Part shown: piece by piece, positions 1 through 22,068 of the stretch
Layout: every line of letters begins with the position of its first letter
Numbering within the stretch: position 1 is the first letter of the stretch
Source: Escherichia coli
GTDB taxonomy: Bacteria; Pseudomonadota; Gammaproteobacteria; Enterobacterales; Enterobacteriaceae
Assembly (NCBI RefSeq): GCF_013315695.1
Contig: NZ_CP054353.1
Direction: 5' to 3' (one strand)
DNA: 64,000 nt
Made by a program: the position numbers and the translations under genes
Notes under the pieces: model-generated
The model's input: the letters and a program-made list of their open reading frames with translations, nothing else
Database searches by the model: none
What the model was told of the DNA's origin: nothing

Positions 1-183
1 GGCAACGGTGCTTCTATTGGCGGTCTGAAAGTGATGACTGACAACGGCTGGTTCGCCGCGCGTCCGTCAGGCACGGAAGACGCATATAAGATCTACTGCG
101 AAAGCTTCCTCGGTGAAGAACATCGCAAGCAGATCGAGAAAGAAGCGGTTGAGATTGTTAGCGAAGTTCTGAAAAACGCGTAA
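1..183 (+). CDS. pgm: Phosphoglucomutase, 3' end (partial CDS entering the window)
   Basis: Frame 1 translates to ...[60 protein letters not shown], recognised as the Pgm C-terminus; stop at 181-183. Confidence 0.85.
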
Positions 184-200
184 ACACATTTAATAAGAAA

Positions 201-229
201 AAGGGCGGTCAGAAGATCGCCCTTTTTTA
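201..229. terminator. Probable bidirectional rho-independent terminator between convergent pgm and potE
   Basis: Inverted repeat GGGCGGTC...GATCGCCC followed by a T-run on the plus strand and an A-run on the other side. Confidence 0.5.
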
Positions 230-239
230 CTTTGCTTTA

Positions 240-1559
240 TTAACCGTGTTTATTTTTCAGTTCAAAGCGTGGTGATACCAGACCATACAGTGTCCAACCA
301 AGGAAGGTCACGATGGAACCGTACAGCATGGCTTCTTCCCCGGATGAGTACAGCGCATAGAAACTGTACATCGCACCAACAAAGGCAACAAAGTTTGCTA
401 CTTTCGCTTTTGACGGTGGCACATTGGCGACCTGCTGAATAATAACTAATGCTGCCATCGACAGAATATACGGGATGATATTGGTCACCACGGCCAGGTT
501 AACCAGCACGTTGAACTGGCTGTTCAGTGACGGGCTAATGGTCATCAGTGCCAATCCACTCTGAATAATCACAATGGTCAACATTCCCTGAACCGGTGCA
601 TCCACTTTGGTTACACGGGAGAAAATTTTAGGGAAGTAGCCTTCATCAGATGAAGATTTAAACACCTGGGCAATGGTGAACTGCCAGCCAAGCAGTGAAC
701 CGCAGCAGGACATCACCATCAGCGCCATAATGACTTTACCCACTTCTGGTGTGAACATCTGTGCGAAGACCAGGCCAAATGGTGCCGTTGAATTTACCAG
801 CTCCATATTGGGCACAATCCCGGCAATCACGTTGGTGGAGACGATATAAATCACTGCCGCACCTAACGTACCGCCAAGGACTGCTATTGGCACGTTACGT
901 TCCGGGTTTTCCACTACTTCGGCGTTGGCACAGGCTGACTCCAGACCAAGGAAAGCCCACAACGTCATAGCGATGGAAGAACCTACAGCGCTAAAGAACG
1001 GCACATGGTGCGGGTTCCATGAGTTAGCGTACAGCGTCGGGCTAAACCAGAACCAGCCGATAATGCACAGACCGACCACCGGAATGATTACCCCCCACAC
1101 AGTAATGCTACTGATTTGCCCGGTAATGCGCGCACCACCAAAGTTAGCCACGGTACAAATCCACAGCACCCCGATGGTCGCAAGACCAATCTGCACTGGT
1201 GACAAACTTGCGCCGAGCAATTCGGTGCCGTAACCAACCGCCGAAATAGCAATTGCGACGTTAGCAATCAGCAGCGAGACACCGTAGGTGTAGTTCGCCA
1301 TAAAGTTACCGGATTTACCGAAAGCATACTCGGCATAACCGCCCATACCACCTGATTTACGGCTGAACATGCCGCATTTTGCGAATGCCCATGCCAGCGC
1401 CATTGAGCCTACGGCAGTCACCAACCAGGAGATTATTGAGATTGTCCCAACTTCGGCAAGCTTTGTCGGCAGCATGATGATACCGGAGCCCATCATGTTG
1501 ACCATCGTCAGTATGGTTAACTGAACGACGCCCATTTTGTTCGATTTAGCCTGACTCAT
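240..1559 (-). CDS. potE: Putrescine-ornithine antiporter (APC family)
   Basis: 439 aa ORF with multi-pass membrane composition; recognised as PotE; sits immediately downstream of speF with a 4-nt overlap, as in the speF-potE operon. Confidence 0.93.
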   Translation of the reverse strand: MSQAKSNKMGVVQLTILTMVNMMGSGIIMLPTKLAEVGTISIISWLVTAVGSMALAWAFAKCGMFSRKSGGMGGYAEYAFGKSGNFMANYTYGVSLLIANVAIAISAVGYGTELLGASLSPVQIGLATIGVLWICTVANFGGARITGQISSITVWGVIIPVVGLCIIGWFWFSPTLYANSWNPHHVPFFSAVGSSIAMTLWAFLGLESACANAEVVENPERNVPIAVLGGTLGAAVIYIVSTNVIAGIVPNMELVNSTAPFGLVFAQMFTPEVGKVIMALMVMSCCGSLLGWQFTIAQVFKSSSDEGYFPKIFSRVTKVDAPVQGMLTIVIIQSGLALMTISPSLNSQFNVLVNLAVVTNIIPYILSMAALVIIQQVANVPPSKAKVANFVAFVGAMYSFYALYSSGEEAMLYGSIVTFLGWTLYGLVSPRFELKNKHG

Positions 1560-3754
1560 AATTTTTCCCCTTTCAACAGGATGCTTTGCGCATCACGAGG
1601 CTTGATGACATAGCACCAAACTTGCTTACGACCATCATGTTCTTCGATATAGACACCCTGAAGCTCCGGTGCAAAACCTGGCAGCAGGTTGATCCCTTCT
1701 TCCAGAGCGCTGAAGTAACGCAGAACAGCACCACCCCAGATTTCACCCGGAACAACACACAGCACACCCGGAGGATAAGGAAGCGCACCTTCTGCAGCGA
1801 TACGGCCTTCTGCATCCGGCAGACGAATCAGCTCCACTTCACCGCGTAAATAGGCGTGGTTGGCTTCTTGTGGATTCATGCTGACGCGTGGGAAGTGTTC
1901 CTTACGAAACATCTCTTTTTGCAGTTGTTTCACGTTGTGACGGGCATACAAATCATGCATTTCCTGACACAACTGACGCAGGGTATAACCGGTGTAGCGC
2001 TCTTCATGCTGTTTGTAGATGGAAGGCAGTACTTCTGATAATGGCGCGTCGGACTCAAGCAGTTTTTCGAAGCGTACCAGCAGAGCAGCAAGTTGCTGAA
2101 GTTTGGCCATATCTTCTGCCGGAGTCAGCAGAAAGAGGATGGAGTTAAGATCGCATTTTTCCGGCACTACGCCATTTTCGCGCAGGAAGTTAGCAAGAAT
2201 CGTCGCGGGTACACCGAACGCTTCATATTCACCGTTACGTGCATCAATACCTGGGGTTGTCAGCAACAGTTTGCACGGATCGACAAAGTATTGATTCTCT
2301 GCATAGCCTTCAAAAGAATGCCAGTGCTCACCTGGTACAAACTGGAAGAAGCGCAGATCAACCGCAATTTGCGCTGTTTCATACGACTGCCAGGGTTTAC
2401 CATCCACCAGTTCAGGTACGAATGGACGAATATGCTGACAGTTATCGAGGATCAGTTTGCGGGCATTAATGCCATTTACCACACAATCCATCCACATATT
2501 ACGACCGCTGACACCTTCATGCATTTTGGCGTTGATATCCAGTGCGGCAAACAGCGGATAGAACGGGCTGGTGGAGGCATGCATCATAAAGGCGTTGTTC
2601 ATGCGTTTGTGCGGTACATAACGCTGTTGCCCTTTGATATGGCAGTCTTTTTTATGGATTTGTGAAGTCTGGGAAAAACCAGCCTGCTGTTTATGCACAG
2701 ATTGCGTAACCAGAATACCCGGATCGTTCTCATTAAGATCCAGCAACAGTGGTGAACAGTCCGCCATCATCGGGATAAACTGCTCATAGCCGACCCATGC
2801 GGAGTCAAAGAGGATGTAGTCACACAGATGACCAATTTTATCCACCACCTGACGGGCGTTATAAATCGTACCGTCGTAAGTGCCTAGCTGAATAACGGCG
2901 AGGCGGAAAGGACGCGCCTCTTTTGCCCGCTGCGGTGCGACTTCTGTAATCAGTTCGCGCAGGTAATTTTCTTCGAAGCAGTGGGCATCAATACCACCGA
3001 TAAAGCCATACGGGTTGCGTGCGGTTTCCAGATAAACCGGTGTTGCACCAGCCTGTAGCAACGCTCCGTGGTGGTTAGACTTATGGTTATTACGGTCAAA
3101 CAGCACCAGATCACCCGGTGTCAGCAGGGCGTTTAAAACCACTTTGTTGGAAGATGAAGTGCCATTTAGAACGAAGTATGTTTTATCGGCATTAAACACT
3201 TTTGCCGCATGTTGCTGTGCAATGCATGGCGCGCCTTCGTGAATCAGCAGATCGCCCATTGCCACATCCGCGTTGCACAAGTCAGCACGGAACAGCGCCT
3301 CACCAAAGTATTCTACAAACTGATTCCCCGCCGGATGGCGACGGAAAAATTCGCCGCCCTGATGACCGGGGCAATCAAACGCGCTGTTACCCTGATTGAC
3401 ATAATCGACCAGTGCGCGGAAGAAGGGCGGGCGCAGTTGAGTTTCATAATGGCTGGCTGCGGTTTCTAACTGACGACCATAAAATTCTCGTCGCGATTCG
3501 CAATTCTCAAAGACACCCGAAATACGGGGCAAATACTCTGCGGGTACACGTTCTTGATTTTCAGTAGCAATAAATACCGGGATGCCATAACCCGTGGCAT
3601 CGATTTCATCGAGTTTTCCGCGTGTAACATCGTTGAGCGATAAAACTATTGCCGCCACATCGATATTACTGTTTTCATTAATATAGATACATTCTCGCTG
3701 CGTGGTAAAACAGTCCGGGCAAGAATCACTAACCGCAATTTTTAATTTTGACAT
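1556..3754 (-). CDS. speF: Inducible ornithine decarboxylase (PLP-dependent)
   Basis: ORF track gives 1556..3832; start moved to the internal ATG at 3754 (MSKLKIAVSDSCPDCF...), matching the SpeF N-terminus as recalled; fold-III decarboxylase family. Confidence 0.93.
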   Translation of the reverse strand: MSKLKIAVSDSCPDCFTTQRECIYINENSNIDVAAIVLSLNDVTRGKLDEIDATGYGIPVFIATENQERVPAEYLPRISGVFENCESRREFYGRQLETAASHYETQLRPPFFRALVDYVNQGNSAFDCPGHQGGEFFRRHPAGNQFVEYFGEALFRADLCNADVAMGDLLIHEGAPCIAQQHAAKVFNADKTYFVLNGTSSSNKVVLNALLTPGDLVLFDRNNHKSNHHGALLQAGATPVYLETARNPYGFIGGIDAHCFEENYLRELITEVAPQRAKEARPFRLAVIQLGTYDGTIYNARQVVDKIGHLCDYILFDSAWVGYEQFIPMMADCSPLLLDLNENDPGILVTQSVHKQQAGFSQTSQIHKKDCHIKGQQRYVPHKRMNNAFMMHASTSPFYPLFAALDINAKMHEGVSGRNMWMDCVVNGINARKLILDNCQHIRPFVPELVDGKPWQSYETAQIAVDLRFFQFVPGEHWHSFEGYAENQYFVDPCKLLLTTPGIDARNGEYEAFGVPATILANFLRENGVVPEKCDLNSILFLLTPAEDMAKLQQLAALLVRFEKLLESDAPLSEVLPSIYKQHEERYTGYTLRQLCQEMHDLYARHNVKQLQKEMFRKEHFPRVSMNPQEANHAYLRGEVELIRLPDAEGRIAAEGALPYPPGVLCVVPGEIWGGAVLRYFSALEEGINLLPGFAPELQGVYIEEHDGRKQVWCYVIKPRDAQSILLKGEKL

Positions 3755-4011
3755 TTTCCAACTCTTTATTTTTGGTAATAGCAGGTCCTCAATTTCTCGA
3801 ATGAGAAATCGATCGTGCCGGAAAAAAAGCAAAGTTACCCCGCTGATAAATTAATCAGAAGTTTGCTTTTTTCAGAATGCAGAAACCCTTATCAGTCCGG
3901 TGGCTGATAATACAAGGGTTAACAGAGAATGAGCACTGCGGAATACAGGCATATGCCTGTAATACAGAGAGTCAGGAAGACCTGTACGCTGAAGTGCCCT
4001 TAGTCGGTAGA

Positions 4012-4116
4012 CTAACGGGCATTGAAGAAGTGAAAGTCGAAGCTATTGCGATGAGCAAACTTCATAATATGAGTTGTCCGCCTTATATGGGGCATAGTGC
4101 GGCTGTTATTTTCCAT
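4012..4116 (-). CDS. speFL: speF leader arrest peptide (ornithine sensor)
   Basis: Minus-strand 34-codon ORF read by hand: MENNSRTMPHIRRTTHIMKFAHRNSFDFHFFNAR*, located in the speF 5' leader. It is below the ORF-track size cutoff. Confidence 0.85.
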   Translation of the reverse strand: MENNSRTMPHIRRTTHIMKFAHRNSFDFHFFNAR

Positions 4117-4349
4117 TTAATTTACCTTTCCTGATGTGAATGAAGGTGAAGGTATTCTATCCAGGAAATACGGTTGAACTGTGAAGGTGATCAATAAAAA
4201 ATGATCAATCTTAATTTATTTAATGATGAGCTTTTTACTCAGTAATATAAAATATTGAATTGTTATTTTTGTGTGTTGTTTAAGATAAAAAGCCGTATTT
4301 ATTATTACGGCTTTAATTAATAAAAGGCAGGATGTATTAAAATTAATAT

Positions 4350-5027
4350 TCAAAGCATAAACCGATACCCAATACCGGTTTCAGTAATGAAATGGCGGGG
4401 GCGGGCGGGATCTTGCTCCAGTTTTTGTCGCAGATGCCCCATATAAATACGCAAATAATGACTGTGTTCGACCGCGTTTGGTCCCCACACCTGATTGAGT
4501 AACTGGCGCTGGGTGAGCACTTTTCCGGCGTTGTTGAGCAGCACGGCCAGCAGGCGGAATTCAATCGGCGTGAGATGCACCTCTTCCTCACCCCGGTGAA
4601 TCACGCGGGCGGCTAAATCGACGGTCACATCGGAAAATTTCACCAGCGGATCGGGCGCGGTGGTGGCGGAGTGGCGGCGTAAAGCGACGCGCAGACGGGC
4701 CTGCAATTCGCCAATGCCAAACGGCTTACTCAGGTAATCATCCGCTCCGGCATCCAGCGCGGCGATTTTGTCGCTCTCTTCGCTGCGTGCGGAAAGCACA
4801 ATCACCGGCACCGCGCTCCACTGGCGCAGGTCGCGGATAAACTCAATCCCATCACCATCGGGCAGGCCGAGATCGAGAATAATCAAATCTGGCTTACGGG
4901 TTGCCGCTTCCAGCAAGCCGCGTTGCAGCGTTTCGGCCTCAAAGACGCGCATCCCGTCGCCCTCCAGCGCCGTGCGCAGAAAGCGACGAATAGCCTGTTC
5001 ATCTTCAACAATCAGAACGTTTGTCAC
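4350..5027 (-). CDS. kdpE: Response regulator of the Kdp two-component system (OmpR family)
   Basis: 225 aa; receiver domain (DLGLPDGDG) plus winged-helix C-terminus; 4-nt overlap with kdpD. Confidence 0.95.
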   Translation of the reverse strand: MTNVLIVEDEQAIRRFLRTALEGDGMRVFEAETLQRGLLEAATRKPDLIILDLGLPDGDGIEFIRDLRQWSAVPVIVLSARSEESDKIAALDAGADDYLSKPFGIGELQARLRVALRRHSATTAPDPLVKFSDVTVDLAARVIHRGEEEVHLTPIEFRLLAVLLNNAGKVLTQRQLLNQVWGPNAVEHSHYLRIYMGHLRQKLEQDPARPRHFITETGIGYRFML

Positions 5028-7708
5028 ATATCCTCATGAAATTCTTCAAGTTCAGGGGCAGTTTGCTGGGGAAGTGTAACACGAAAACAGGCACCACCTT
5101 CCGGTCGGTTGAATGCGGTAATGGTGCCGCCGTGTACATCCACAATCGCCCGACAAATTGCCAGCCCAAGCCCGACGCCCGGCACTGCCGACTCTTTATT
5201 CCCGCGGGCAAACTTATCGAATATCGTCTGCTCCTGGCCTGGCGGAAGACCGGGGCCGTTATCCCAGACATCCAGTTGTAGATTTTCGCCCTCAACGTGG
5301 GCATCGATACCAATTTCGGCCTGCGCACCCGCGTATTTCACCGCGTTCTCCAGCAGATTAATCAGCACCCGTTCAAAGAGTGGCCCATCAACGTGGATTA
5401 AGGTCAGCGGTTCTGGCAAAGACAGGTTGATGGGCGATGATAATCCCGGTTCCAGCATTTGCAGCGCGCTGCCGACCACTTCTTCCAGCGTTAACCACTC
5501 TTTCTTCAAATTAAAGCCGCCGGACTGAATTCGCGCCATATCCAGTAGATTATTCACCAGTCGGGTCGTGTTCAGCACATGCTGGCGAATCTCGCTGGCC
5601 TGGCGGGCGTGGGGCGATCCTTCGCTTGCCAGATCGAGCGTTAAGATTTCTGCCTGACCGAACAGCACCGTAAGCGGCGTGCGTAAATCATGCGAAAGTG
5701 CCGCCAGCAGGGCGTTGCGGATCTGTTCACGTTCGCTTGCCATCCGCGCCTGTTCTTCGCTGGCGGTCAGTGTCAGCCGCTCAAGCGCATTGGCGACTAA
5801 CAGCGTAAATGTCTCCAACAGGCGCTGTTGTTCCGGGATCATCAACTGACGCAGATTCCCCGGTTCTACCACCACCAGTCCGTAGGTTTTCTCGCCGCTT
5901 CTTAACGGCAGAATCTGGTACGGTACGCCGGGTAACGTGTCGGTGCCCGCGCCCGCAGGCTGACCTTTATCAAAACTCCACTGCGCGATGGCATCGTCCC
6001 ACGGCGTCATTCCTTGCGGATGTGTTAACGGCTGCAATTTACCGTTGTTATCGGGCAACAACACCTGACTGCGGGCATGAAACGTGGAGGCAATAAATTG
6101 TTCGCTGGTGGCGGCGATGTCCTGCGGACTGCGGCCCACAGCCAGAGCTTTGGACATTTCATATAAGTGCCGTGTGCGTTGTTCGCGGTAACGGGCTACC
6201 CGCGCCTGATAACGCACGCCAGCAGTAAGGTTCCCGATCACCAGCCCGACGGTTAACATCACCGCGAAGGTCAGCAGATATTGCACATCAGAGACGGCGA
6301 GCGTGCCGCGTGGGGTGATAAAAAAGAGATCGAAACTCACCACATTAATGACGGTGGCAACCACTGAAGGCCAGCGTCCATAAAATAGCGCCACCACCAC
6401 CACGCCAAGCAGATACAGCATCACCAGGTTGGCGGCATCAAACGCCATCAGCCACTGCATGGCAATTAAGGTGATAACGGCGCATAACGCGGCGGCAACC
6501 ACGCATCCCTGAATCTGTACCCGCCACTTGTCTTTAAAAGAGCGGCTATCCGGCGCGTTGTTAAGTGTGCGGGCGGGGGGGTCATCAAGTGCGACCAGCA
6601 CCTGATCGAGTTCGGGGGCGATACGCGCCAGTCGGTCAGCAAACGTTTCCCGACGCCACCAGCGGCGCGAGGCCGGGCGACCGAGAATAATCTTGCCGAG
6701 ATTATGTTCACGGGCATAACGCACTACTGCTTTTTCTTCCGCTGGATCAGAAAGTGTTGCCGTCTCCGCGCCCAGCTCCTGCGCCAGACGTAAGGCGCTG
6801 AGAATTGCCCGACGTTTTTTCTCCGGTAAGCGATGCAGGGCAGGGGTTTCAACATACACCGCGTGCCAGACACTGCCCAGGCGCGAGGCCAACCGCGCCG
6901 CCGCGCGGACCAGTTTCTCACTGCCGGTGTTATGCCCGATGCATAAAAGGATCGCGTCGCGTGTGTGCCAGACTTTCTCTTCGCCAGGATGCCCCCGCCA
7001 GGCGCGCATTTGCTCATCTACGCGATCGGCAGTACGGCGCAGTGCCAGTTCGCGCAGGGCGATCAGATTGCCTTTGCGAAAAAAATGTTCAATGGCGCGC
7101 TCCGCCTGCCCGGCAATATAGACTTTGCCTTCTTTCAGCCGCTGGCGCAGATCGTCCGGGGGCAAGTCCACCAGTACTACGTCGTCGGCGGCATCAAAAA
7201 AAGGATCGGGCACGGTCTCCCGTACCTGAATTCCGGTGACGCCGCTGACCACATCATTCAGACTTTCCAGATGCTGAACGTTAACGGTAGTGAAAACATC
7301 AATGCCAGCTTCCAGCAGCTCCTCAATGTCCTGCCAGCGTTTGGGATGACGAGAACCTGGCGCATTACTGTGCGCCAGTTCGTCCATTAAGATCAGTGCC
7401 GGACGGCGGGCGAGGGCGGCATCGAGATCAAACTCGCTGATATGCCGCCCACGGTACGCCTGGCGTTTGGGCGGCAGAACAGCCAGCCCTTCCAGCATTG
7501 CGGCGGTATCTTTCCGCCCGTGGGTTTCTACCACGCCAACCACAATATCCAGCCCTTGCGCCCGCAGTCGCTGGGCTTCCGCCAGCATCGCCCAGGTCTT
7601 CCCGACGCCTGCGCAGGCACCGAAGAAAACTTTCAGCTTCCCCCGATGCGGCGCGGCAGTTTGTTCCAGCAGACGATCGGGGTCGGGACGTAAGGGTTCG
7701 TTATTCAT
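5024..7708 (-). CDS. kdpD: Sensor histidine kinase KdpD
   Basis: Track ORF 5024..7741; start moved to [17 protein letters not shown] (ATG at 7708), giving 894 aa; Walker-like N-terminal KdpD domain, USP domain, TM segments and HisKA/HATPase C-terminus. Confidence 0.95.
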
Positions 7709-8273
7709 CAAGCTTATCCAGCGCCAGATTGAGTTCGACAATGTTGACGACCGGCTGGCCGATATAGTTCACCAGCGGTTGTTGGCTGTATTTTGCGATC
7801 AGTTGCGTGAGCTGTTCAACGCTGAGATTACGCGCTTTCGCCACGCGTGGGATCTGCCAGGCCGCCGCTTGCGGGGTGATGTTATTGTCCAGCCCGCTTG
7901 CCGACGCCGTCACCAGTTCAACCGGAACGCTCGTGCTGGCGTCCGGGTTAGCGGCCCGTAATGCGGCAACGCGTGCGGCTATCTGTTTATCCAGCTCCGG
8001 GTTACTGACTGCCAGATTGCTCCCGCCAGAAGCCTGTGGATTATAGGGCATTTCTGCCGTTGCCGATGGGCGACCATGAAAATAGCCGTTGCCGGTAAAA
8101 TTCTGCCCGATTAATGCTGAACCCCGCACCGTATCACCTTCACGAATCAACGAACCGTTGGCCTGCCAGGGAAACCACCATTGCCCCAGCACGGTGGTCA
8201 GCAGCGGGTAAACGCCGCCAGTGATCAATAACAGAAAGAGAAATGTTGATAATGCCGGACGTAATCCACTCAT
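7701..8273 (-). CDS. kdpC: K+-transporting ATPase subunit C
   Basis: Track ORF 7701..8297; start set at [16 protein letters not shown] (ATG 8273), 190 aa; overlaps the kdpD start. Confidence 0.92.
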
Positions 8274-8281
8274 GGTAAACC

Positions 8282-10330
8282 TCACACCAGACCGCAAACG
8301 GTCAGCAGTAAATCAATGACTTTGATACCAATAAACGGCACCAGCAGCCCACCCAGACCGTAAATCCATAAGTTACGGCGCAACATGGCAGAAGCGGTAA
8401 GCGGTTTATAACTCACGCCTTTTAACGCCAAGGGAATCAAAAAGACGATAATCAAGGCGTTGAAAATGACCGCACTGAGAATGGCGGAGTCGGGCGAATG
8501 CAGGCGCATGATGTTCAGCGCATTTAACTGCGGATACGTTGCCGCGAACGCCGCCGGAATAATGGCGAAGTATTTCGCCACATCGTTGGCAATGCTGAAG
8601 GTGGTCAGCGAGCCACGGGTCATCAGCATCTGTTTGCCAATATGTACCACCTCGATCAACTTGGTCGGATTAGAGTCGAGATCCACCATATTGCCCGCTT
8701 CTTTCGCCGCCTGAGTACCAGAGTTCATCGCCACCGCGACATCTGCCTGCGCCAGCGCCGGAGCATCGTTGGTGCCGTCGCCGGTCATCGCCACCAAACG
8801 GCCTTCCGCCTGATACTGACGAATCAATGCCAGCTTGGCCTCCGGTGTTGCTTCGGCGAGAAAATCATCGACACCCGCTTCCGCAGCTATCGCGGCGGCA
8901 GTCAGGCGGTTATCGCCGGTAATCATCACCGTTTTAATGCCCATTTTACGCAGCTGGGCGAAGCGCTCTTTAATACCGCCTTTGACGATATCTTTCAGCG
9001 CAATAACGCCCAGCACACGAGAACCTTCCACCACCACCAGCGGCGTGGCTCCCTGACGCGCAACCTGATCGACTTTTTGATCGACGTCGGCAGGGAAGTG
9101 ACCGCCGTTAGCCTCAACATGGCGGCGAATGGCATCGACAGAACCTTTACGGATCATGCGGTTGTCGATGTTGATCCCGCTCATCCGGCTTTGCGCAGTA
9201 AACGGTACAAAGGTGGCGTGAAGCGACTGCACATCGCGCTCACGCAGGTTAAAACGCTGCTTGGCGAGGATCACAATACTGCGGCCTTCCGGCGTTTCAT
9301 CAGCCAGCGAAGCCAGTTGTGCGGCGTCAGCCAGCGTTTTTTCATCCACGCCCTGCGCGGGGATAAACTCCGACGCCTGACGGTTACCGAGTGTGATGGT
9401 GCCGGTTTTATCCAGTAGCAGAACGTCAACGTCACCTGCCGCTTCAACTGCACGTCCGCTGGTGGCAATCACATTCGCGCCCAGCATCCGACTCATCCCG
9501 GCGACGCCGATCGCTGACAACAGGCCGCCAATAGTGGTTGGGATCAGACAGACCAGTAGCGCCACCAGTACCGTTACGCTGACCGCGTTGCCGCCCCACG
9601 CGGAAAACGGCCACAGCGTGGCGGTTGCCAGTAAAAAGACGATAGTCAGGGCAATCAGGAGAATGGTCAGGGCAATCTCGTTTGGCGTTTTGCGTCGCTG
9701 TGCGCCTTCCACCATCGCGATCATCCGATCCAGAAATGTCTCGCCGGGATTAACGCTGCACTCAATTACTAGCCAGTCAGAAAGAATACGCGTGCCGCCA
9801 GTGACGGAGGCAAAATCGCCGCCGGATTCACGGATCACCGGTGCCGATTCCCCGGTGATGGCGCTTTCATCGACCGATGCGCCCCCTTCAATGACTTCAC
9901 CATCGCAGGGGATAATATCGCCTGCTTCTACCAGCACGATATCGCCTTTACGCAGTTGATCGGCAGGAACTTTGTCCGCCGCAGCGCCATATTTCGGCTC
10001 ACGAAGCTTGCGGGCAAAGGCAGTTTTTTTCACCCCTTTCAGACTGTTGGCCTGCGCTTTACTGCGGCCTTCTGCCAGCGCCTCGGCGAAATTAGCGAAC
10101 AGTACGGTGACCCACAGCCAGCCGCTAATTGCCGCGCTAAACAGCGCATTGCCAGGCATCGCACCGCTTGCCATTGCGATGCAAATAAAGGTGGTTAACA
10201 GACTGCCGATCCAGACGATAAACATCACCGGATTGCGCCATTGCGCCTGCGGGTTTAATTTTTTCACCGCTTCTTTCAGCGCCTGAACGACAAGTGTTGG
10301 TTCGAATAGCGCCAGTTGTTTACGACTCAT
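8282..10330 (-). CDS. kdpB: K+-transporting P-type ATPase catalytic subunit B
   Basis: 682 aa; P-type ATPase motifs DKTGTLT and TGDN...[10 protein letters not shown] visible in the translation. Confidence 0.96.
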
Positions 10331-10352
10331 ATTCAGTGCTCACTCAATATCA

Positions 10353-12026
10353 TCAGGAGAGATATTCCGCCACCGGACCAAGCGCCAGGGCAGGGATAAA
10401 GGTCAGTGCGCCAACCAGCAACACGGTGCCGATTAACAGGCCAACAAACAGCGGGCCGTGCGTAGGCAGTGTACCGGAGCTGGCGGGTTGGCTCTTTTTA
10501 CTCACCAGCGAACCAGCAATTGCCATCACCGGAATAATCACCCCGAAGCGACCGACAAACATGCAGAACGCCAGCAAACAGTTCCAGAATGGAGAGTTGG
10601 CGCTTAATCCGGCAAAGGCGCTGCCGTTGTTGTTAGCGGCGGACGACACGGCGTACAGCACTTCGCTAAAACCATGCGGGCCAGGGTTGAGCATGGCGCT
10701 ACGTCCGGCGTCGGTCATCATTGCCAGCGCCGCGCCCATCAGCACCAGCGTTGGGGTGACCAGAATCGCCAGTGCAGTCAGTTTCATCTCACGTACGTCG
10801 ATTTTTTTACCCAGATATTCCGGTGTACGACCAATCATCAGCCCGGCAATAAACACCGCCAGCAGGACAAACAGCATCATGCCGTAAAGGCCGGAACCGA
10901 CGCCGCCGAATACCACTTCACCAATTTGCATCAACCACATCGGCACCATGCCACCAAGAGCGGTAAACGAATCATGCATCGCAATCACCGCGCCGCAGGA
11001 AGCCGCCGTAGTCACGACCGCAAACAGGCTACTGACCAGCACGCCGAAACGGCTCTCTTTACCTTCCATATTGATGCTGCTGTCCGCGCCCAGTGCCAGC
11101 AGATGCGGATTACCCTGAACTTCTGCCCACATCACCACGCCTGTGCAGATGATAAAAATCACTGACATCGCCCACAGCAACATGCGCCCCTGGCGACGAT
11201 CGCCCGCCACTTCACCAAAGGCAAAGCACAGCGCTGTTGGGATCAAGAAAATCGCCAGCATTTGCACGAAGTTGGTCAGTGCGGTTGGGTTTTCAAACGG
11301 ATGCGACGAGTTGGCATTAAAGAAGCCACCGCCGTTAGTACCGAGCATCTTGATCGCTTCCTGAGAAGCTACTGGCCCCATTGGTAACAGCTGTTGCGCT
11401 CCTTCAATTGTCGTCACAGCCTGATAAGGCTGAAAGTTTTGCAGTGCACCTTGTTGAATAAAAAACAGTGCGATCAACAATGCCACAGGGACTAGCACCC
11501 ATAACGTGATGCGTAGCAGATCGACCCAGGCATTCCCGAGTGTGCTCATGCTCTGGCGGGTAAATGCACGAATGAGGGCAAAAATCACCGCAATCCCGCT
11601 GGCGGCAGAAAGAAAGTTTTGTACCGTTAAGCCCGCCATCTGGCTGAAATAGCTCAACGTGGTTTCACCGCTATAAGATTGCCAGTTGGTATTCGTGACA
11701 AAGCTGACGGCGGTATTCAGCGCCAGATCCCATGACAGCCCTGGCAACTGCTGTGGATTAAGCGGCAGATAGTGCTGACCGAGCAACATAAAAAACAGCA
11801 CCGCCAGCCCCAGCATGTTCAGGCCGAGAATGGCACAGAGATACTGCTTCCAGTTCATCTCACTGTCAGAGACGCCAGGTAAACGAAAGAGTACGCGTTC
11901 AACACCCGCTGTACCGGGAAGAGGTATGTCATTAATCAGCCGCGCCAGCCCGCTGCCTAAAGGACGTGCCAGCACCATTAACACCAGTAAAAACGTGGCG
12001 ATCAGTAAGAACCCTTGCGCAGCCAT
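10353..12026 (-). CDS. kdpA: K+-transporting ATPase channel subunit A
   Basis: Track ORF extends to 12170; true start taken as the ATG at 12026 ([19 protein letters not shown]...), 557 aa, overlapping the kdpF stop. Confidence 0.95.
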
Positions 12027-12115
12027 CAGAACGCCTCCGCATTGATCAGGGCATAAACCAGATAACCCAGTAATAAAAACACCAGCAACACGCCGGCTAT
12101 CACGCCTGCACTCAC
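12026..12115 (-). CDS. kdpF: K+-transporting ATPase small subunit F
   Basis: 29-codon ORF, GTG start, [29 protein letters not shown], verified codon by codon on the minus strand; single TM helix. Confidence 0.8.
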
Positions 12116-12330
12116 AGTGCACCTCCAGTGGCCGAAAAGTGATATCGGAAGGGTAGAATTCTGGCTGCAAAGATTTCGCAAAAATCTGCGGGCGGGGTGT
12201 AAAAAAAGTATAAAAATGGCAAAAGCCATGATTTAACTGATGGTTAGTATTAATTTAACTTTTGTGTAACTTAATTACAGTGTGAATGTAAATAAACCAT
12301 CAATAAGCAAAAATAAGTGGTCGGATGAGT
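12116..12330 (-). promoter_or_regulatory. kdpFABC promoter / KdpE-binding region (location only)
   Basis: AT-rich non-coding interval immediately upstream of kdpF; individual sites not resolved by eye. Confidence 0.4.
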
Positions 12331-12427
12331 AGTAAAATTACACAAAAGGCGGTACTATTTTCATCAGATAAACAAATTCATTTTTCCGGTGCCATTCACC
12401 GGGTAGATACAACAGGGGGAGAAAAGT

Positions 12428-12634
12428 ATGGAACTTTACAGAGAATATCCTGCATGGCTTATCTTTTTACGCCGTACTTATGCGGTTGCAGCGGGCGTTC
12501 TGGCGCTGCCTTTCATGCTTTTCTGGAAAGACCGCGCCCGCTTTTACAGCTACCTGCACCGCGTCTGGTCGAAAACCAGCGAGAAACCGGTGTGGATGGA
12601 TCAGGCCGAAAAGGCAACTGGTGATTTTTACTGA
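12428..12634 (+). CDS. ybfA: Small inner-membrane protein YbfA (DUF2517)
   Basis: 68 aa [39 protein letters not shown]... matches YbfA as recalled. Confidence 0.8.
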
Positions 12635-12656
12635 TTGCTAAATATTACGTTCAAAG

Positions 12657-12694
12657 AAAACCGCCAGCGGAAACGCTGGCGGTTTTCTTTTTTC
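12657..12694 (+). terminator. Rho-independent terminator after ybfA
   Basis: AAAACCGCCAGCG-GAAA-CGCTGGCGGTTTTCTTTTTT hairpin plus T-run. Confidence 0.6.
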
Positions 12695-12734
12695 GGCGTC
12701 TACACTTACTCCTGTAAACCGTTCAGGAGCAGTA

Positions 12735-13244
12735 ATGAATCAACAACTTTTTGATGACAGCACCCTTATCCGCATTTTTGCTTTGCATGAGTTACACAAT
12801 CTCAAAGATCGAGGACTAACGCGCGGGGCGCTTCTCGATTATCACAGCCGCTATAAACTCGTCTTTCTGGCTCATTCCCAGCCGGAATACCGCAAACTTG
12901 GCCCGTTTGTGGCTGATATTCACCAGTGGCAAAATCTGGATGACTATTACAACCAGTACCGCCAACGCGTAATTGTTTTGCTTTCTCACCCTGCCAACCG
13001 GCGTGATCATACTAACGTTTTGATGCACGTTCAGGGTTATTTTCGCCCTCATATTGATTCCACAGAACGCCAGCAGCTGGCTGCGCTTATCGACAGTTAT
13101 CGCCGTGGCGAGCAACCACTTCTTGCGCCGCTGATGCGTATCAAACACTATATGGCGCTTTATCCTGACGCCTGGCTTTCAGGGCAGCGTTATTTCGAAC
13201 TTTGGCCGTGTGTGATTAACTTGCGCCATTCAGGAGTTTTATGA
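12735..13244 (+). CDS. ybgA: DUF1722-family protein YbgA
   Basis: 169 aa; overlaps the phr start by 4 nt as in the ybgA-phr operon. Confidence 0.85.
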   Translation: MNQQLFDDSTLIRIFALHELHNLKDRGLTRGALLDYHSRYKLVFLAHSQPEYRKLGPFVADIHQWQNLDDYYNQYRQRVIVLLSHPANRRDHTNVLMHVQGYFRPHIDSTERQQLAALIDSYRRGEQPLLAPLMRIKHYMALYPDAWLSGQRYFELWPCVINLRHSGVL

Positions 13245-14659
13245 CTACCCATCTGGTCTGGTTTCGCCAGGATTTACGTCAGCACGATAATCTCGCGCTG
13301 GCTGCCGCCTGCCGCAATTCGTCTGTGCGCGTGCTGGCGTTGTATATCGCTACCCCACGCCAGTGGGCGGCGCATAATATGTCGCCGCGTCAGGCTGAAT
13401 TTATCAATGCACAACTGAACGGGCTACAAATCGCGCTGGCGGAAAAAGGCATTCCTTTGCTGTTTCATGAAGTGGATGACTTTGCCGCCAGCGTCGAAAT
13501 AGTTAAACAGGTGTGCGCGGAAAATCGTGTTACCCATCTGTTTTATAACTATCAGTATGAGGTGAATGAGCGGGCGCGGGATGTGCAGGCTGAGAGGGCG
13601 CTGCGTAACGTGGTGTGTGAAGGATTTGACGACGGCGTGATCCTGCCGCCGGGGGCGGTGATGACTGGCAATCATGAGATGTACAAAGTCTTTACGCCAT
13701 TTAAAAACGCCTGGCTTAAACGGCTGCGAGAAGGGATGCCGGAGTGCGTCGCTGCGCCAAAAGTACGTAGTAGCGGATCGATAGATCCCGCGCCATCCAT
13801 TACGCTGAATTATCCTCGTCAGCCTTTCGATACTGCGCATTTCCCGGTGGAAGAGAAAGCGGCGATTGCGCAATTACGCCAGTTTTGCCAGAACGGTGCC
13901 GGAGAGTATGAGCAACAGCGAGATTTCCCTGCGGTAGAAGGCACCAGCCGTTTGTCCGCCAGCCTGGCAACGGGCGGGTTATCGCCTCGCCAGTGTTTGC
14001 ATCGCCTGTTGGCGGAACAGCCGCAGGCGCTGGACGGTGGGGCCGGTAGTATCTGGCTTAATGAGCTGATCTGGCGCGAGTTTTACCGTCATCTGATAAC
14101 GTATTACCCCTCGCTGTGTAAACATCGTCCGTTTATTGTCTGGACCGACCGCGTGCAGTGGCAGAGCAATTCCGCGCATTTAAAGGCCTGGCAGGAAGGC
14201 AAAACGGGATACCCGATTGTTGATGCTGCCATGCGTCAGCTTAACAGCACCGGCTGGATGCATAACCGGCTACGGATGATTACAGCCAGTTTTTTGGTGA
14301 AAGATTTATTGATCGACTGGCGCGAAGGTGAGCGATATTTCATGTCGCAGCTGATTGATGGTGATTTGGCAGCCAATAACGGTGGCTGGCAGTGGGCCGC
14401 TTCAACCGGAACCGATGCAGCGCCGTATTTTCGTATTTTTAACCCGACAACCCAGGGCGAGAAATTTGACCGTGAGGGCGAGTTTATCCGCCAGTGGCTA
14501 CCGGAACTGCGCGATGTGCCAGGGAAAGTGGTGCATGAGCCGTGGAAGTGGGCGCAGAAAGCAGGTGTGACGCTGGATTATCCGCAACCGATAGTTGATC
14601 ACAAAGAGGCAAGGCTGCGAACGCTGGCAGCGTACGAAGAAGCGAGGAAAGGAGCCTGA
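13241..14659 (+). CDS. phr: Deoxyribodipyrimidine photolyase
   Basis: 472 aa; photolyase/cryptochrome family with the FAD-binding C-terminal WxxxxxRxFNP-type region. Confidence 0.95.
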   Translation: MTTHLVWFRQDLRQHDNLALAAACRNSSVRVLALYIATPRQWAAHNMSPRQAEFINAQLNGLQIALAEKGIPLLFHEVDDFAASVEIVKQVCAENRVTHLFYNYQYEVNERARDVQAERALRNVVCEGFDDGVILPPGAVMTGNHEMYKVFTPFKNAWLKRLREGMPECVAAPKVRSSGSIDPAPSITLNYPRQPFDTAHFPVEEKAAIAQLRQFCQNGAGEYEQQRDFPAVEGTSRLSASLATGGLSPRQCLHRLLAEQPQALDGGAGSIWLNELIWREFYRHLITYYPSLCKHRPFIVWTDRVQWQSNSAHLKAWQEGKTGYPIVDAAMRQLNSTGWMHNRLRMITASFLVKDLLIDWREGERYFMSQLIDGDLAANNGGWQWAASTGTDAAPYFRIFNPTTQGEKFDREGEFIRQWLPELRDVPGKVVHEPWKWAQKAGVTLDYPQPIVDHKEARLRTLAAYEEARKGA

Positions 14660-14701
14660 TAAAACGCAGCGAGCGTCTTATCAGGCATCGGTGCTGGCCT
14701 G

Positions 14702-16366
<1,665 letters not shown>

Positions 16367-16453
16367 TTAATATGTCAAAAGATTGGCTATCGACGAACAG
16401 GCGAGGTAACGCTATGTTAACGGTGTAGCTATCAGAATACGGAAGGCGCGAAG

Positions 16454-17197
16454 ATGAAAAACACCGAACTGGAACAACTGATTAACGAAAAACTGAACAG
16501 CGCGGCGATTAGTGATTACGCGCCGAATGGTTTGCAGGTGGAAGGCAAAGAGACGGTGCAAAAAATTGTTACCGGTGTCACTGCCAGCCAGGCTTTGCTC
16601 GATGAGGCAGTGCGTCTGGGCGCGGATGCGGTCATTGTGCATCATGGCTACTTCTGGAAAGGTGAATCTCCGGTCATTCGCGGAATGAAGCGTAACCGTT
16701 TAAAAACGTTGCTGGCGAATGATATCAACCTGTATGGCTGGCATCTGCCCCTGGACGCGCATCCGGAGCTGGGTAATAACGCACAACTGGCGGCGTTACT
16801 GGGGATCACGGTCATGGGCGAAATTGAGCCGTTGGTGCCGTGGGGCGAACTGACCATGCCTGTGCCGGGACTGGAACTGGCCTCCTGGATTGAAGCGCGT
16901 CTGGGACGTAAGCCGTTATGGTGTGGCGATACCGGACCTGAGGTGGTCCAGCGCGTCGCCTGGTGCACGGGGGGCGGGCAAAGTTTTATCGATAGCGCCG
17001 CGCGTTTTGGCGTGGATGCTTTTATTACTGGCGAAGTTTCTGAACAGACCATTCATTCAGCCCGCGAGCAGGGATTGCATTTTTATGCTGCGGGTCACCA
17101 TGCCACTGAACGCGGTGGTATTCGCGCGTTGAGCGAGTGGCTGAATGAAAATACCGATCTTGATGTGACCTTTATTGATATTCCTAATCCTGCATAA
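16454..17197 (+). CDS. ybgI: NIF3-family metal-binding protein YbgI
   Basis: 247 aa; NIF3/YbgI family. Confidence 0.9.
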   Translation: MKNTELEQLINEKLNSAAISDYAPNGLQVEGKETVQKIVTGVTASQALLDEAVRLGADAVIVHHGYFWKGESPVIRGMKRNRLKTLLANDINLYGWHLPLDAHPELGNNAQLAALLGITVMGEIEPLVPWGELTMPVPGLELASWIEARLGRKPLWCGDTGPEVVQRVAWCTGGGQSFIDSAARFGVDAFITGEVSEQTIHSAREQGLHFYAAGHHATERGGIRALSEWLNENTDLDVTFIDIPNPA

Positions 17198-17219
17198 CGA
17201 ATAATCAGAGGGATCGAAA

Positions 17220-17876
17220 GTGCAACGAGCGCGTTGTTATCTGATAGGTGAAACGGCGGTAGTGCTGGAGCTGGAACCGCCGGTGACGCTGGCTAGCCAG
17301 AAACGGATCTGGCGACTGGCGCAGCGTCTGGTGGATATGCCAAATGTGGTTGAAGCGATACCGGGGATGAACAATATCACGGTGATTTTACGTAATCCTG
17401 AGTCGCTGGCGCTGGATGCCATAGAGCGTTTGCAACGCTGGTGGGAGGAGAGTGAGGCGCTGGAGCCGGAGTCTCGCTTTATTGAAATTCCGGTGGTTTA
17501 CGGTGGTGCAGGCGGACCGGATTTGGCGGTGGTCGCGGCGCATTGCGGGTTGAGCGAAAAACAGGTTGTTGAATTGCACTCCTCCGTGGAATACGTGGTC
17601 TGGTTTTTAGGTTTTCAACCGGGCTTCCCGTATCTCGGGAGTTTGCCGGAACAACTACACACGCCACGGCGCGCTGAACCGCGCTTGCTCGTTCCGGCAG
17701 GTTCTGTCGGGATCGGCGGGCCGCAGACCGGTGTTTATCCGCTGGCAACGCCGGGTGGCTGGCAGTTGATTGGTCATACCTCACTCAGCCTGTTTGATCC
17801 GGCGCGTGACGAACCCATCTTATTACGTCCGGGAGACAGCGTGCGCTTTGTACCGCAAAAGGAGGGAGTATGCTGA
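17220..17876 (+). CDS. pxpB: 5-oxoprolinase subunit B
   Basis: 218 aa; allophanate-hydrolase-subunit-1-like; former ybgJ. Confidence 0.88.
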
Positions 17877-18802
17877 AGATTATTCGTGCGGGCATGTATA
17901 CCACTGTGCAGGATGGCGGTCGTCACGGTTTTCGCCAGTCGGGTATCAGCCACTGCGGCGCACTGGATATGCCTGCGCTGCGCATTGCTAACCTGCTGGT
18001 GGGTAATGACGCCAATGCCCCCGCGCTGGAGATCACGCTCGGTCAGTTAACGGTTGAGTTCGAAACTGATGGGTGGTTTGCTCTGACGGGTGCCGGTTGC
18101 GAAGCGCGGCTGGATGATAACGCCGTCTGGACCGGCTGGCGATTGCCGATGAAAGCAGGCCAGCGTTTAACGCTTAAACGCCCGCAGCACGGGATGCGCA
18201 GTTATCTGGCGGTCGCGGGTGGTATTGATGTTCCGCCGGTAATGGGATCATGCAGCACCGATCTCAAAGTGGGGATTGGCGGGCTGGAAGGCCGTTTACT
18301 GAGGGATGGTGACCGACTCCCGATTGGCAAAGCGAAGCGTGATTTTATGGAAGCGCAGGGAGTTAAACAGCTGCTGTGGGGCAACCGCATTCGCGCCTTG
18401 CCGGGGCCGGAATATCATGAGTTCGATCGCGCCTCGCAGGATGCATTCTGGCGTTCTCCCTGGCAACTTAGCCCGCAAAGTAACCGCATGGGTTATCGCT
18501 TACAGGGGCAAATTTTAAAACGCACCACCGATCGCGAACTGTTATCTCATGGTTTGTTGCCGGGCGTGGTGCAGGTGCCGCATAACGGCCAGCCGATTGT
18601 ATTGATGAACGACGCACAGACCACCGGTGGTTATCCGCGTATTGCCTGTATCATTGAGGCTGATATGTACCATCTGGCGCAAATTCCGCTCGGTCAGCCG
18701 ATTCATTTTGTCCAGTGTTCACTGGAAGAGGCACTGAAAGCACGGCAAGATCAGCAACGTTATTTCGAACAATTAGCGTGGCGGCTGCACAATGAAAATT
18801 GA
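17870..18802 (+). CDS. pxpC: 5-oxoprolinase subunit C
   Basis: 310 aa; allophanate-hydrolase-subunit-2-like; former ybgK; overlaps pxpB and pxpA. Confidence 0.88.
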
Positions 18803-19526
18803 CCTGAACGCCGATCTGGGCGAAGGCTGTGTCATCGACGCAGAGCTATTAACGCTGGTTTCCTCTGCCAATATTGCCTGTGGATTTCATGCTGGCGATG
18901 CGCAAATCATGCACGCTTGCGTGCGTGAAGCAATAAAAAATGGTGTCGCGATTGGCGCTCATCCGAGTTTTCCTGACAGGGAAAATTTTGGTCGCAGCGC
19001 TATGCAGCTGCCGGCAGAAACCGTTTACGCCCAGACGCTGTATCAAATTGGCGCGCTGGCAGCGATTGCCCGTGCGCAAGGCGGCGTAATGCGTCATGTC
19101 AAACCGCACGGCATGTTATACAACCAGGCGGCGAAAGAGGCACAACTGGCAGACGCCATCGCCAGAGCGGTATACGCTTGCGATCCGGCATTGATTCTCG
19201 TCGGGCTGGCAGGAAGCGAGCTGATTCGTGTAGGCGAACGATATGGCCTGGTAACGCGCGAGGAAGTGTTTGCCGATCGCAGTTATCAGGCAGACGGTTC
19301 GCTGGTGCCGCGAAGCCAGCCAGGCGCGCTGATTGAAGACGAAGAACAGGCGCTGGCGCAAACGTTGGAGATGGTGCAACACGGCAGAGTCAAAAGTATC
19401 ACCGGCGAATGGGCAACGGTCACGGCGCAAACGGTCTGCCTGCATGGCGACGGCGAGCACGCACTGGCATTCGCCCGCCGACTACGCTCTACATTTGCCG
19501 AAAAGGGGATTGTTGTTGCAGCATAA
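18792..19526 (+). CDS. pxpA: 5-oxoprolinase subunit A (LamB/YcsF family)
   Basis: 244 aa; former ybgL. Confidence 0.88.
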
Positions 19527-19561
19527 CCCCGCTTAATAAAGAATGAAAAAAGGATATCACC

Positions 19562-20353
19562 ATGCCTGAAGGCCCGGAGATCCGCCGTGCAGCGGATAAC
19601 CTGGAGGCGGCGATCAAAGGCAAACCACTAACTGATGTCTGGTTTGCCTTCCCGCAGTTAAAATCTTATCAATCACAACTTATCGGTCAACACGTTACCC
19701 ATGTGGAAACGCGTGGCAAGGCGTTGTTAACTCATTTTTCCAACGAATTAACGCTCTACAGCCATAATCAGCTTTACGGCGTCTGGCGCGTGGTTGATAC
19801 CGGCGAAGAGCCGCAGACCACGCGAGTATTGCGGGTAAAACTGCAAACGGTTGACAAAACCATTCTGCTTTATAGCGCCTCGGATATTGAGATGTTGACC
19901 CCGGAACAACTGACCACGCATCCGTTTTTACAACGCGTTGGCCCCGATGTGCTGGATCCGAAACTGACGCCGGAGGTGGCGAAAGAACGGTTATTGTCGC
20001 CGCGCTTTCGTAACCGTCAGTTTGCTGGATTACTACTCGATCAGGCGTTTCTGGCTGGGCTTGGCAATTATTTGCGGGTGGAGATCCTCTGGCAGGTTGG
20101 GTTGACTGGAAATCATAAAGCGAAAGATCTCAATGCGGCGCAACTGGATGCACTCGCACACGCGTTACTGGAGATTCCTCGATTTTCCTACGCTACGCGG
20201 GGGCGGGTGGATGAGAATAAGCATCATGGGGCGCTGTTTCGCTTTAAGGTTTTTCATCGTGATGGCGAACTGTGCGAACGCTGTGGCGGCATCATTGAGA
20301 AAACCACGCTGTCATCTCGCCCGTTTTACTGGTGCCCTGGCTGTCAGCACTAG
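19562..20353 (+). CDS. nei: Endonuclease VIII (Fpg/Nei DNA glycosylase)
   Basis: 263 aa; N-terminal MPEGPEI and C-terminal zinc finger CxxC...CxxC. Confidence 0.94.
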
Positions 20354-21396: not shown

Positions 21397-21547
21397 CCTT
21401 CGCTTCCTCATTATTTTCTCTTTGGTGTATCGATACAGCATAAAGAAAGCTGGGTCTGGAAAAAATAACGGTAATCAAGGAAAAGGGGAAAATCAGCAAT
21501 AATCTGAATACGTTGCCCTTTCCGGCTGAAAAGGGCGTCGTGTTAAA

Positions 21548-21922
21548 TCAGTTATAGTTAATCTTAAAAAGTACCACTGTATCGAAGGGACCCGCCGCGA
21601 TGAGAGTGCCAGGTGTGGACGATAATTCAGCCGTATAGGTTTTTTCGTAGATCAGCATATCACTGGTGAAATCGGCGTATTCAGCATATTTATTGAATGT
21701 ATAAGGCGAGGCGTTTTCATCCAGCAAACGTAGCTTCAGACTATTACCAATCAACAATGCTTTATCTTCTTCAACCAACGTTTCTTCGGTATAAAAGGAG
21801 GAACTGACTTTAAATCCGTCGGTGCATTGGTCATTTTGTGATTTTGTCGTGTTAATACTGAATGTTTTCGACATTGTGTGGCGGCGAATATCCAGCAGAT
21901 TAAATTTACCAAAATCAATCAC
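21548..21922 (-). CDS. Hypothetical protein (orphan ORF where K-12 carries the ybgOPQD fimbrial operon)
   Basis: 124 aa ORF, no signal peptide or recognisable domain; may be real or a remnant of the deleted fimbrial locus. Confidence 0.3.
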   Translation of the reverse strand: MIDFGKFNLLDIRRHTMSKTFSINTTKSQNDQCTDGFKVSSSFYTEETLVEEDKALLIGNSLKLRLLDENASPYTFNKYAEYADFTSDMLIYEKTYTAELSSTPGTLIAAGPFDTVVLFKINYN

Positions 21923-22068
21923 CTGTGTTTCCGGTGAAATATTTTTTCACCTTATTAATGGGTATTTGCATCTGGTTTAATTTTTACAATTTTTTATGTT
22001 CAGCCATATAAAAAGAACCCGCTCTATTAAAGGCGGGTCCGGAAAGTGAACGGCTTAGCAATCAACCA

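Follow-up and report, generated by a model that had tools for sequence, protein, structure and literature searches.

The 64-kb stretch of Escherichia coli DNA analysed here (hereafter the window) has the island-free state at two old presence/absence polymorphisms; its ybfA–ybgA allele is very probably ancestral, and its compact pgm–potE allele may be the older or at least a co-ancestral state. The missing K-12 insertions are a common, documented strain difference, and the rhs polymorphism is already published. The window is 96.4% identical to K-12 over 12.5 kb in alignment, its nearest relatives (98.0–98.4% identical) include IAI39, CE10 and SMS-3-5, and only five genomes reach at least 99% identity. 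As so few genomes are this close, the kdp region might have been imported from a divergent lineage of Escherichia, but this was rejected because the window is 96–97% identical to K-12 and O157 throughout and is farther from the divergent lineages L006 and L007.

As the original prediction stated, pgm and potE end 56 bp apart around one hairpin (pgm stop TAA at 181–183, potE stop on the minus strand at 240–242), and ybfA is separated from ybgA by 100 bp. The K-12 gene order that it gave agrees with the K-12 annotation at both junctions, and alignment to K-12 together with tblastn of the 64-kb window confirmed that both K-12 insertions are absent. The proposal that the junctions mark a non-K-12 lineage held in that the window is not K-12, but as lineage markers they are weak, since they occur in 59% and 24% of complete E. 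coli genomes: among 5,426 such genomes, the compact pgm–potE junction occurs in 3,196 and the K-12-type island in 1,851, while the compact ybfA–ybgA junction occurs in 1,309 and the left junction of ybfA plus Rhs in 3,697. That the clean junctions are an assembly artefact of collapsed repeats is hardly conceivable; both Rhs cores and ISAs1 copies recur within E. coli genomes and can fragment assemblies made from short reads, but the same junctions are found as single uninterrupted alignments in those 3,196 and 1,309 complete genomes, well-known reference strains among them, and repeat collapse would not yield a spacer colinear with outgroups.

The two polymorphisms flank the speFL-speF-potE/kdpFABCDE block of E. 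coli, whose features are listed in the table. An Rfam scan of positions 1–14000 at the gathering threshold matched no family.

Features of the two junctions and of the block between them (window coordinates)
Feature	Position	Strand	Basis
pgm 3' end (last 60 codons and stop)	1..183	+	RefSeq annotation of the near-identical MSB1_4I record; tblastn 100%
pgm–potE spacer, 56 bp, convergent genes	184..239		alignment and tblastn
Single T1-type hairpin, core GGGCGGTCAGAAGATCGCCC at 203–222	197..228		fold and alignment
potE, putrescine-ornithine antiporter, intact	240..1559	-	annotation; tblastn
speF, inducible ornithine decarboxylase, intact	1556..3754	-	annotation; tblastn
speFL leader peptide	4012..4116	-	MSB1_4I annotation, locus 7012–7116 less 3000
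kdpE	4350..5027	-	annotation; alignment
kdpD, kdpC, kdpB, kdpA, kdpF, all intact	5024..12115	-	annotation; tblastn
ybfA	12428..12634	+	annotation; tblastn
ybfA–ybgA spacer, 100 bp, the unoccupied rhsC ("position 5") site	12635..12734		alignment
ybfA intrinsic terminator hairpin (predicted), 17 pairs, then T-run	12653..12690	+	fold
~10 bp CTTTTTTCGG, replaced by the Rhs element in K-12, O157:H7 and E. albertii	12687..12696		alignment
ybgA	12735..13244	+	annotation; tblastn

According to its annotation, K-12 carries rhsC, ybfB, an orphan rhs fragment, ybfC and three ISAs1 pseudogenes in the ybfA–ybgA interval; the rhsC toxin element amounts to 9,568 bp, compared with 7,788 bp for the element of O157:H7. 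RhsC, YbfB, YbfC and the ISAs1 transposase gave zero tblastn matches in the whole 64-kb window, which has neither a core ORF of ~1,400 aa some 245 bp after ybfA, nor ybfB/ybfC, nor ISAs1/H-repeat copies. Alignment to K-12 breaks at window positions 12686/12697, and the Rhs-type left junction after the ybfA terminator, GGCGGTTTTTT followed by GTATCAGGAAG (also written GGCGGTTTTTTGTATCAGG), is absent from the window, which reads GGCGGTTTTCTTTTTTCGGCGTCTACAC. No remnant of rhs, ISAs1, ybfP or DUF2625 was found in 184–239 or 12635–12734, nor did the Rhs boundaries show any target-site duplication. The 100-nt spacer as a whole has a folding energy of −41.7 kcal/mol (z = −7.0). The comparison with O157:H7 that the original prediction proposed, made with strain 2-6-2 (NZ_CP038419.1), separated the two sites: the 56-bp pgm–potE spacer with its T1-type hairpin is shared, whereas O157:H7 has a 7.8-kb Rhs core, ybfC and an ISAs1 element at ybfA–ybgA, as well as ~94 extra bp between speFL and kdpE.

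The ybfA–ybgA spacer of the window aligns base for base with the divergent Escherichia lineages L006 and L007, and also L003, and its match to Raoultella terrigena and Klebsiella spallanzanii is still recognisable. The aligned spacer contains the ~10 bp that Rhs-bearing alleles lack. The site is thus colinear with species that never carry the insertion, with no scar or target duplication. In a set of 80 species-representative loci around kdpD, none outside E. coli had ybfP, ybfG/H, ybfB, ybfC or ISAs1, and Rhs was found outside E. coli only in E. albertii. Judged from these alignments, the ybfA–ybgA junction of the window is a true ancestral, uninterrupted empty site. A clade-I Rhs element accompanied by ISAs1/H-repeat copies would have inserted in other lineages, just past the T-run of the ybfA terminator, and taken away ~10 bp, and the window would either never have received the element or have inherited the uninterrupted allele.

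The rhs locus between kdpA and phr is the variable "position 5" of Jackson et al. 2009 (PMC2935791), and the same locus, rhsC of K-12, has been listed as b0699-b0706 (Archer et al. 2011, PMC3032704); in such surveys, the window represents the unoccupied state that is scored "absent" at the same chromosomal site. The occurrence of rhs at position 5 in E. albertii led Jackson et al. to infer its presence there in ancestral E. coli as well, so that absence would be a later state in some lineages (PMC2935791). In contrast, the window lacks any relic, and the outgroup alignment indicates that the empty allele is the uninterrupted ancestral sequence. That the window lost an Rhs element formerly present accords with the published inference (PMC2935791) and with the E. 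albertii Rhs core, which has 91% protein identity to K-12 RhsC and the same insertion point, 247 bp after ybfA. Such a loss is nevertheless improbable, as the window has kept the ~10 bp and is colinear with divergent Escherichia lineages and other genera; since excision cannot restore lost bases, the element could only have been lost through homologous replacement with an uninterrupted, and therefore still ancestral, allele.

The pgm–potE spacer contains a 14-pair hairpin preceded by an A-run and followed by a T-run, 13–19 bp from each stop codon. Its folding energy as RNA is −21.1 kcal/mol (z = −5.8) on the plus strand and −16.2 kcal/mol (z = −3.9) on the minus strand, with a U-tract after the hairpin on both strands, and no shuffled sequence folds as well. 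In common with bidirectional intrinsic (Rho-independent) terminators, it combines a GC-rich stem with an A-run on one side and a T-run on the other, which means that the transcript of either strand ends in a hairpin and U-tract downstream of the convergent stops; it differs in that the minus-strand stem contains a mismatch and is weaker (−16.2 versus −21.1 kcal/mol). By these sequence features, the hairpin is probably a bidirectional intrinsic terminator, shared by the convergent pgm and potE and ending transcription from both directions.

In K-12, the annotation shows a block of ~1.7 kb between pgm and potE that consists of the lipoprotein gene ybfP, the DUF2625 pseudogene ybfG/H and ybfI, a winged-helix fragment that is a piece of kdpE: the last 145 bp of kdpE (window 4349–4493) are copied as ybfI beside potE in K-12-type genomes. 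In these genomes, one hairpin (T1) follows pgm and a related one (T2) lies beside potE; between them are REP sequences, ybfP, ybfG/H and the 145-bp kdpE 3' fragment. The match of the window to K-12 runs as far as the T-run of the pgm terminator and resumes at that of the potE terminator, but the window has one hairpin, of T1 type, instead of two, with no T2-type hairpin beside potE and only one copy of the kdpE 3' end (4349–4493). YbfP and YbfG/H have no tblastn match anywhere in the 64-kb window, and alignment and tblastn found no trace of ybfP, ybfG/H, ybfI or REP sequence in 184–239. A literature search on ybfP/ybfG found nothing specific to the pgm–potE junction.

The breakpoints of the alignment to K-12 fall at window 200–230, a stretch that occurs twice in K-12: window 1–230 aligns to K-12 T1, and 200 onward to K-12 T2. 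This 31-bp overlap fits another possible origin of the compact junction, namely a secondary deletion from an ancestor with the order pgm-T1-REP-ybfP-ybfG/H-kdpE'-T2-potE, in which recombination between the hairpins, which share ATCGCCCTTTTTTA(C) (14–15 bp), removed the interior. The predicted product is a T1 hairpin joined to the potE flank, as in the window, whose hairpin is identical, loop included, to T1 of the island-bearing IAI39. T1 is found in 6/6 sampled compact E. coli junctions, while T2 is the hairpin next to potE wherever a genome has two, and the only one in E. albertii, which is the pattern that such a deletion would leave. The island is also old: the pgm–potE islands of K-12 (phylogroup A) and IAI39 are colinear at 94.9% identity. 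The deletion is a real possibility, though not the probable course of events, as the compact junction is the majority state (59%) and typical of outgroups, and the deletion would have to have happened independently at least three times, or else to have spread by recombination. A recent deletion in situ from an IAI39-like ancestor is unsupported despite the identical T1, because the 10 bp to the right of the T-run contain four differences from the IAI39 T2 flank and the last 250 bp of pgm differ too.

Outgroup potE–pgm spacers are short, with a single hairpin (63 bp in E. albertii, 77–80 in Citrobacter, 54–154 in Enterobacter and 121 in Raoultella), although the compact hairpin of E. coli is of T1 type and that of E. 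albertii of T2 type. A synthetic compact junction with T2, used as a query, revealed no T2 compact junction with window-like flanks in E. coli genomes, in a search that is blind to T2-type junctions with diverged flanks; its best full-length match was the window's own lineage at 97.2%, that is, the T1 hairpin.

It is also possible, if rather doubtful, that the K-12-type island is a hybrid junction and not a simple insertion, and that the compact T1–potE junction of the window, the majority "empty" allele in E. coli, is derived. Here, a recipient without speF-potE (pgm-T1-REP-ybfP-ybfG/H-kdpE, like today's L003 and L007) would have re-acquired speFL-speF-potE together with the donor's E. albertii-like pgm/potE terminator T2, through recombination, either Campbell-type or one-sided and illegitimate, within the final 145 bp of kdpE. 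The outcome would have been direct kdpE 3' repeats (ybfI and kdpE) together with a pair of diverged terminators descended from a single ancestor, and a later scarless T1–T2 deletion would have created the fusion of T1 to the potE flank in the window.

The window hairpin, T1 joined to the potE flank, fits an ancestral junction and a T1–T2 deletion alike. More E. coli genomes have the compact junction than any other type, and it is usual in related genera with speF-potE; it is therefore treated as older or at least co-ancestral; a point against its being ancestral is that the K-12-type island is old within E. coli and present in the close relative IAI39. The term "reference empty sites" of the original prediction, in its never-occupied sense, is thus borne out for ybfA–ybgA only, by outgroup colinearity, the pgm–potE junction being compatible with a T1×T2 deletion.

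For two polymorphic sites of E. coli, the window provides clean reference alleles without the islands, which help to set the exact boundaries of the rhsC element and the ybfP–ybfG/H–ybfI block, and has little import otherwise. The rhs site is of modest interest in that an ancestral empty allele existed alongside an Rhs-bearing one, which is found in E. albertii too, and the polymorphism would therefore be older than the species or have spread by flanking homologous recombination.

The pgm-potE spacer (184-239) and the ybfA-ybgA spacer (12635-12734) are 56 bp and 100 bp long respectively, as the original prediction had them. Over 1-14000, the window is near-identical to the E. coli MSB1_4I chromosome (NZ_LR898874.1), from which it differs at two positions (8959 and 9770), and the annotation of that record supplied the gene order. 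Only five mismatches occur over 1-60465, after which the two diverge past a tRNA-Lys/Val cluster, where MSB1_4I carries a phage integrase and prophage genes; window 60466-64000 contains candidate nadA, pnuC and zitB genes, by ORF size and order alone.

Genes around the two junctions and blocks aligned with the K-12 locus
Feature	Window position	Strand	Source or K-12 (L002) position
pgm	ends 183	+	MSB1_4I annotation
potE	240-1559	-	MSB1_4I annotation
speF	1556-3754	-	MSB1_4I annotation
speFL	4012-4116	-	MSB1_4I annotation
kdpE	4350-5027	-	MSB1_4I annotation
kdpD, kdpC, kdpB, kdpA, kdpF	5024-12115	-	MSB1_4I annotation
ybfA	12428-12634	+	MSB1_4I annotation
ybgA	12735-13244	+	MSB1_4I annotation
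phrB	after ybgA		MSB1_4I annotation
BLAST block 1	1-230		12111-12339
BLAST block 2	200-12686		14001-26487
BLAST block 3	12697 onward		36058 onward

The three BLAST blocks place a K-12 surplus at both junctions, of ~1.7 kb at pgm-potE and 9,568 bp at ybfA-ybgA. In the MG1655-derived record the first holds the lipoprotein gene ybfP, the DUF2625 pseudogene ybfG/H and the winged-helix fragment ybfI, and the second holds rhsC, ybfB, an orphan rhs fragment, ybfC and three ISAs1 pseudogenes; this annotation and the alignment agree with the K-12 gene order given in the original prediction. YbfP, YbfG/H, RhsC, YbfB, YbfC and an ISAs1 transposase have no tblastn match in the entire 64-kb window, which, with the alignment, bears out the proposed absence of ybfP/ybfGH and the rhsC element. 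O157:H7 (strain 2-6-2, NZ_CP038419.1) shares the compact pgm-potE junction with the window, but its ybfA-ybgA junction holds a 7,788-bp element (Rhs core, ybfC and ISAs1). Between speFL and kdpE, O157:H7 (locus L004 19754-20444 versus window 3755-4349) has ~94 bp more and an additional small annotated ORF, and identity falls to 87% in the 1-kb bin covering this interval.

Elsewhere, a ~16-kb block from sucD to cydA (33894-49591; from locus L092 14410-30107) encodes methylaspartate mutase (S, L and E subunits), methylaspartate ammonia-lyase, class I fumarate hydratase, cobO, a LysR regulator, an RtcB fragment and a TPR protein; since K-12 has mngR-mngAB at this place, the block would be another non-K-12 island. 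The interval between gltA and abrB, where K-12 carries the ybgOPQD fimbrial operon, contains nothing more than a partial type 1 fimbrial pseudogene (21548-21943; from L092 42058-42453).

The pgm-potE spacer contains a 14-pair hairpin (197-228) with a 5' A-run and a 3' T-run. The folding energy of its RNA is -21.1 kcal/mol (z = -5.8) for the + strand and -16.2 kcal/mol (z = -3.9) for the - strand, with a U-tract after each fold. The hairpin of the original prediction is thus present, and since the fold is stable with a U-tract on both strands, it fits a predicted bidirectional intrinsic terminator common to pgm and potE, a function that we infer. The ybfA-ybgA spacer, which folds as a whole at -41.7 kcal/mol (z = -7.0), includes a predicted 17-pair ybfA terminator (12653-12690). 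No Rfam family matches the region.

A KdpD scan of species-representative genomes gave 80 loci, annotated by tblastn, in which the backbone ybfF-seqA-pgm ... kdpEDCBA-ybfA-(ybgA)-phrB-dtpD is kept across Enterobacteriaceae, and in which no genus besides Escherichia has Rhs, ybfB, ybfC or ISAs1 adjoining ybfA. The window spacer can be aligned position by position to those of PS_131_S11 (L003) and of L006 and L007, two divergent Escherichia lineages, and its match to Raoultella terrigena and Klebsiella spallanzanii is recognisable, the common order being ybfA stop, terminator hairpin, T-run, ~8-10 bp, CGTCTACACTTACTCC... and ybgA start. The Rhs element of K-12, O157:H7 and E. albertii starts directly past the T-run, between GGCGGTTTTTT and GTATCAGG, and ends immediately before CGTCTACAC, with no target duplication at its boundaries; all three lack the ~10 bp found at window 12687-12696. 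Because excision cannot restore these ~10 bp, the compact allele is, on the alignments, uninterrupted ancestral sequence. The description as an empty site is therefore secure at ybfA-ybgA, given outgroup colinearity and the retained bases, and only operational at pgm-potE.

Past the ybfA terminator, E. albertii NBRC 107761 carries an Rhs core (1149-5340 of its locus) whose protein is 91% identical to K-12 RhsC; its insertion point is exactly that of E. coli, so the occupied allele is common to both species. The locus has been catalogued as rhs 'position 5' (kdpA-phr), with a complete gene in E. albertii and the same inferred for ancestral E. coli (Jackson et al. 2009, PMC2935791), and a strain table lists it as b0699-b0706 (PMC3032704). 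An old two-allele polymorphism fits the ybfA-ybgA data better than simple loss.

At pgm-potE, K-12-type genomes carry two related hairpins, T1 (GGGCGGTC-nnAAG-ATCGCCC) after pgm and T2 (GGGCGATC-ATTCr-ATCGCCC) beside potE, whose right arms and T-runs are the same, ATCGCCCTTTTTTA(C). A deletion between T1 and T2 is a possible, if somewhat doubtful, origin of the compact junction. It would account for the window's single hairpin, which is T1, identical to that of IAI39 including the loop, joined to the potE-side flank; the T1 type occurs in all six compact E. coli junctions sampled (window, O157:H7, ATCC 25922, FORC_041, Z0117EC0148 and 2022H047), whereas the potE-side hairpin is T2 in K-12, IAI39 and L006, as is the single hairpin of E. 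albertii. The island is also old, its IAI39 and K-12 copies being colinear at 94.9%, and L006 has T1-REP-REP-T2 with no genes in between. Against such a deletion, most E. coli have the compact junction (3,196 of 5,426 complete genomes, 59%, versus 1,851, 34%, with the K-12-type island), a short spacer with a single hairpin is found in all outgroups that have speF-potE (63 bp in E. albertii, 77-80 in Citrobacter, 54-154 in Enterobacter and 121 in Raoultella), and ybfP and ybfG/H were found in no other sampled species. Nothing points to a recent deletion in situ, because the T-run-adjacent bases and the pgm 3' end differ between the window and IAI39. A synthetic compact junction with T2 as query gave no match better than the window's own T1 lineage.

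K-12 ybfI (L002 13815-13959) is a 145-bp, ~90% identical copy of the kdpE 3' end (window 4349-4493), its truncated end facing T2 and potE, so that direct kdpE-3' repeats bracket speFL-speF-potE-T2 in K-12, as expected from Campbell-type or one-sided illegitimate insertion of a cassette. Between pgm and kdpE, speF-potE is variably present across Enterobacteriaceae and within E. coli (loci L003 and L006-L085), being absent from PS_131_S11 and SCPM-O-B-8794. Its loss from Klebsiella indica is a clear deletion, as a ~73-bp potE 3' remnant is fused to the kdpE stop in the pgm-kdpE spacer (L012). Together, these observations suggest a possible hybrid origin of the K-12-type arrangement, in which a speF-potE-less lineage would have re-acquired the cassette.

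Among the same 5,426 genomes, ybfA-ybgA is compact in 1,309 (24%) and ybfA is joined to the Rhs left end in 3,697 (68%). O157:H7, ATCC 25922 and ST131 all have the compact pgm-potE junction, ATCC 25922 being compact at both; the few per cent with neither pgm-potE allele include genomes that lack speF-potE altogether, PS_131_S11 (pgm-ybfP-kdpE) being one. No more than five genomes reach at least 99.9% identity across the 14 kb. The next tier (98.0-98.4%) comprises TCM3e1-type genomes, compact at both junctions, and IAI39, CE10 and SMS-3-5, which we take to be phylogroup F. IAI39 has the pgm-potE island and a compact ybfA-ybgA; CE10 and SMS-3-5 span the same extra 1.68 kb, the island content having been inspected in IAI39 alone. 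The junctions show that the window is not K-12, but are weak lineage markers. The junction observation is confirmed and its interpretation was essentially right; such island-free junctions are ordinary in E. coli and already documented.
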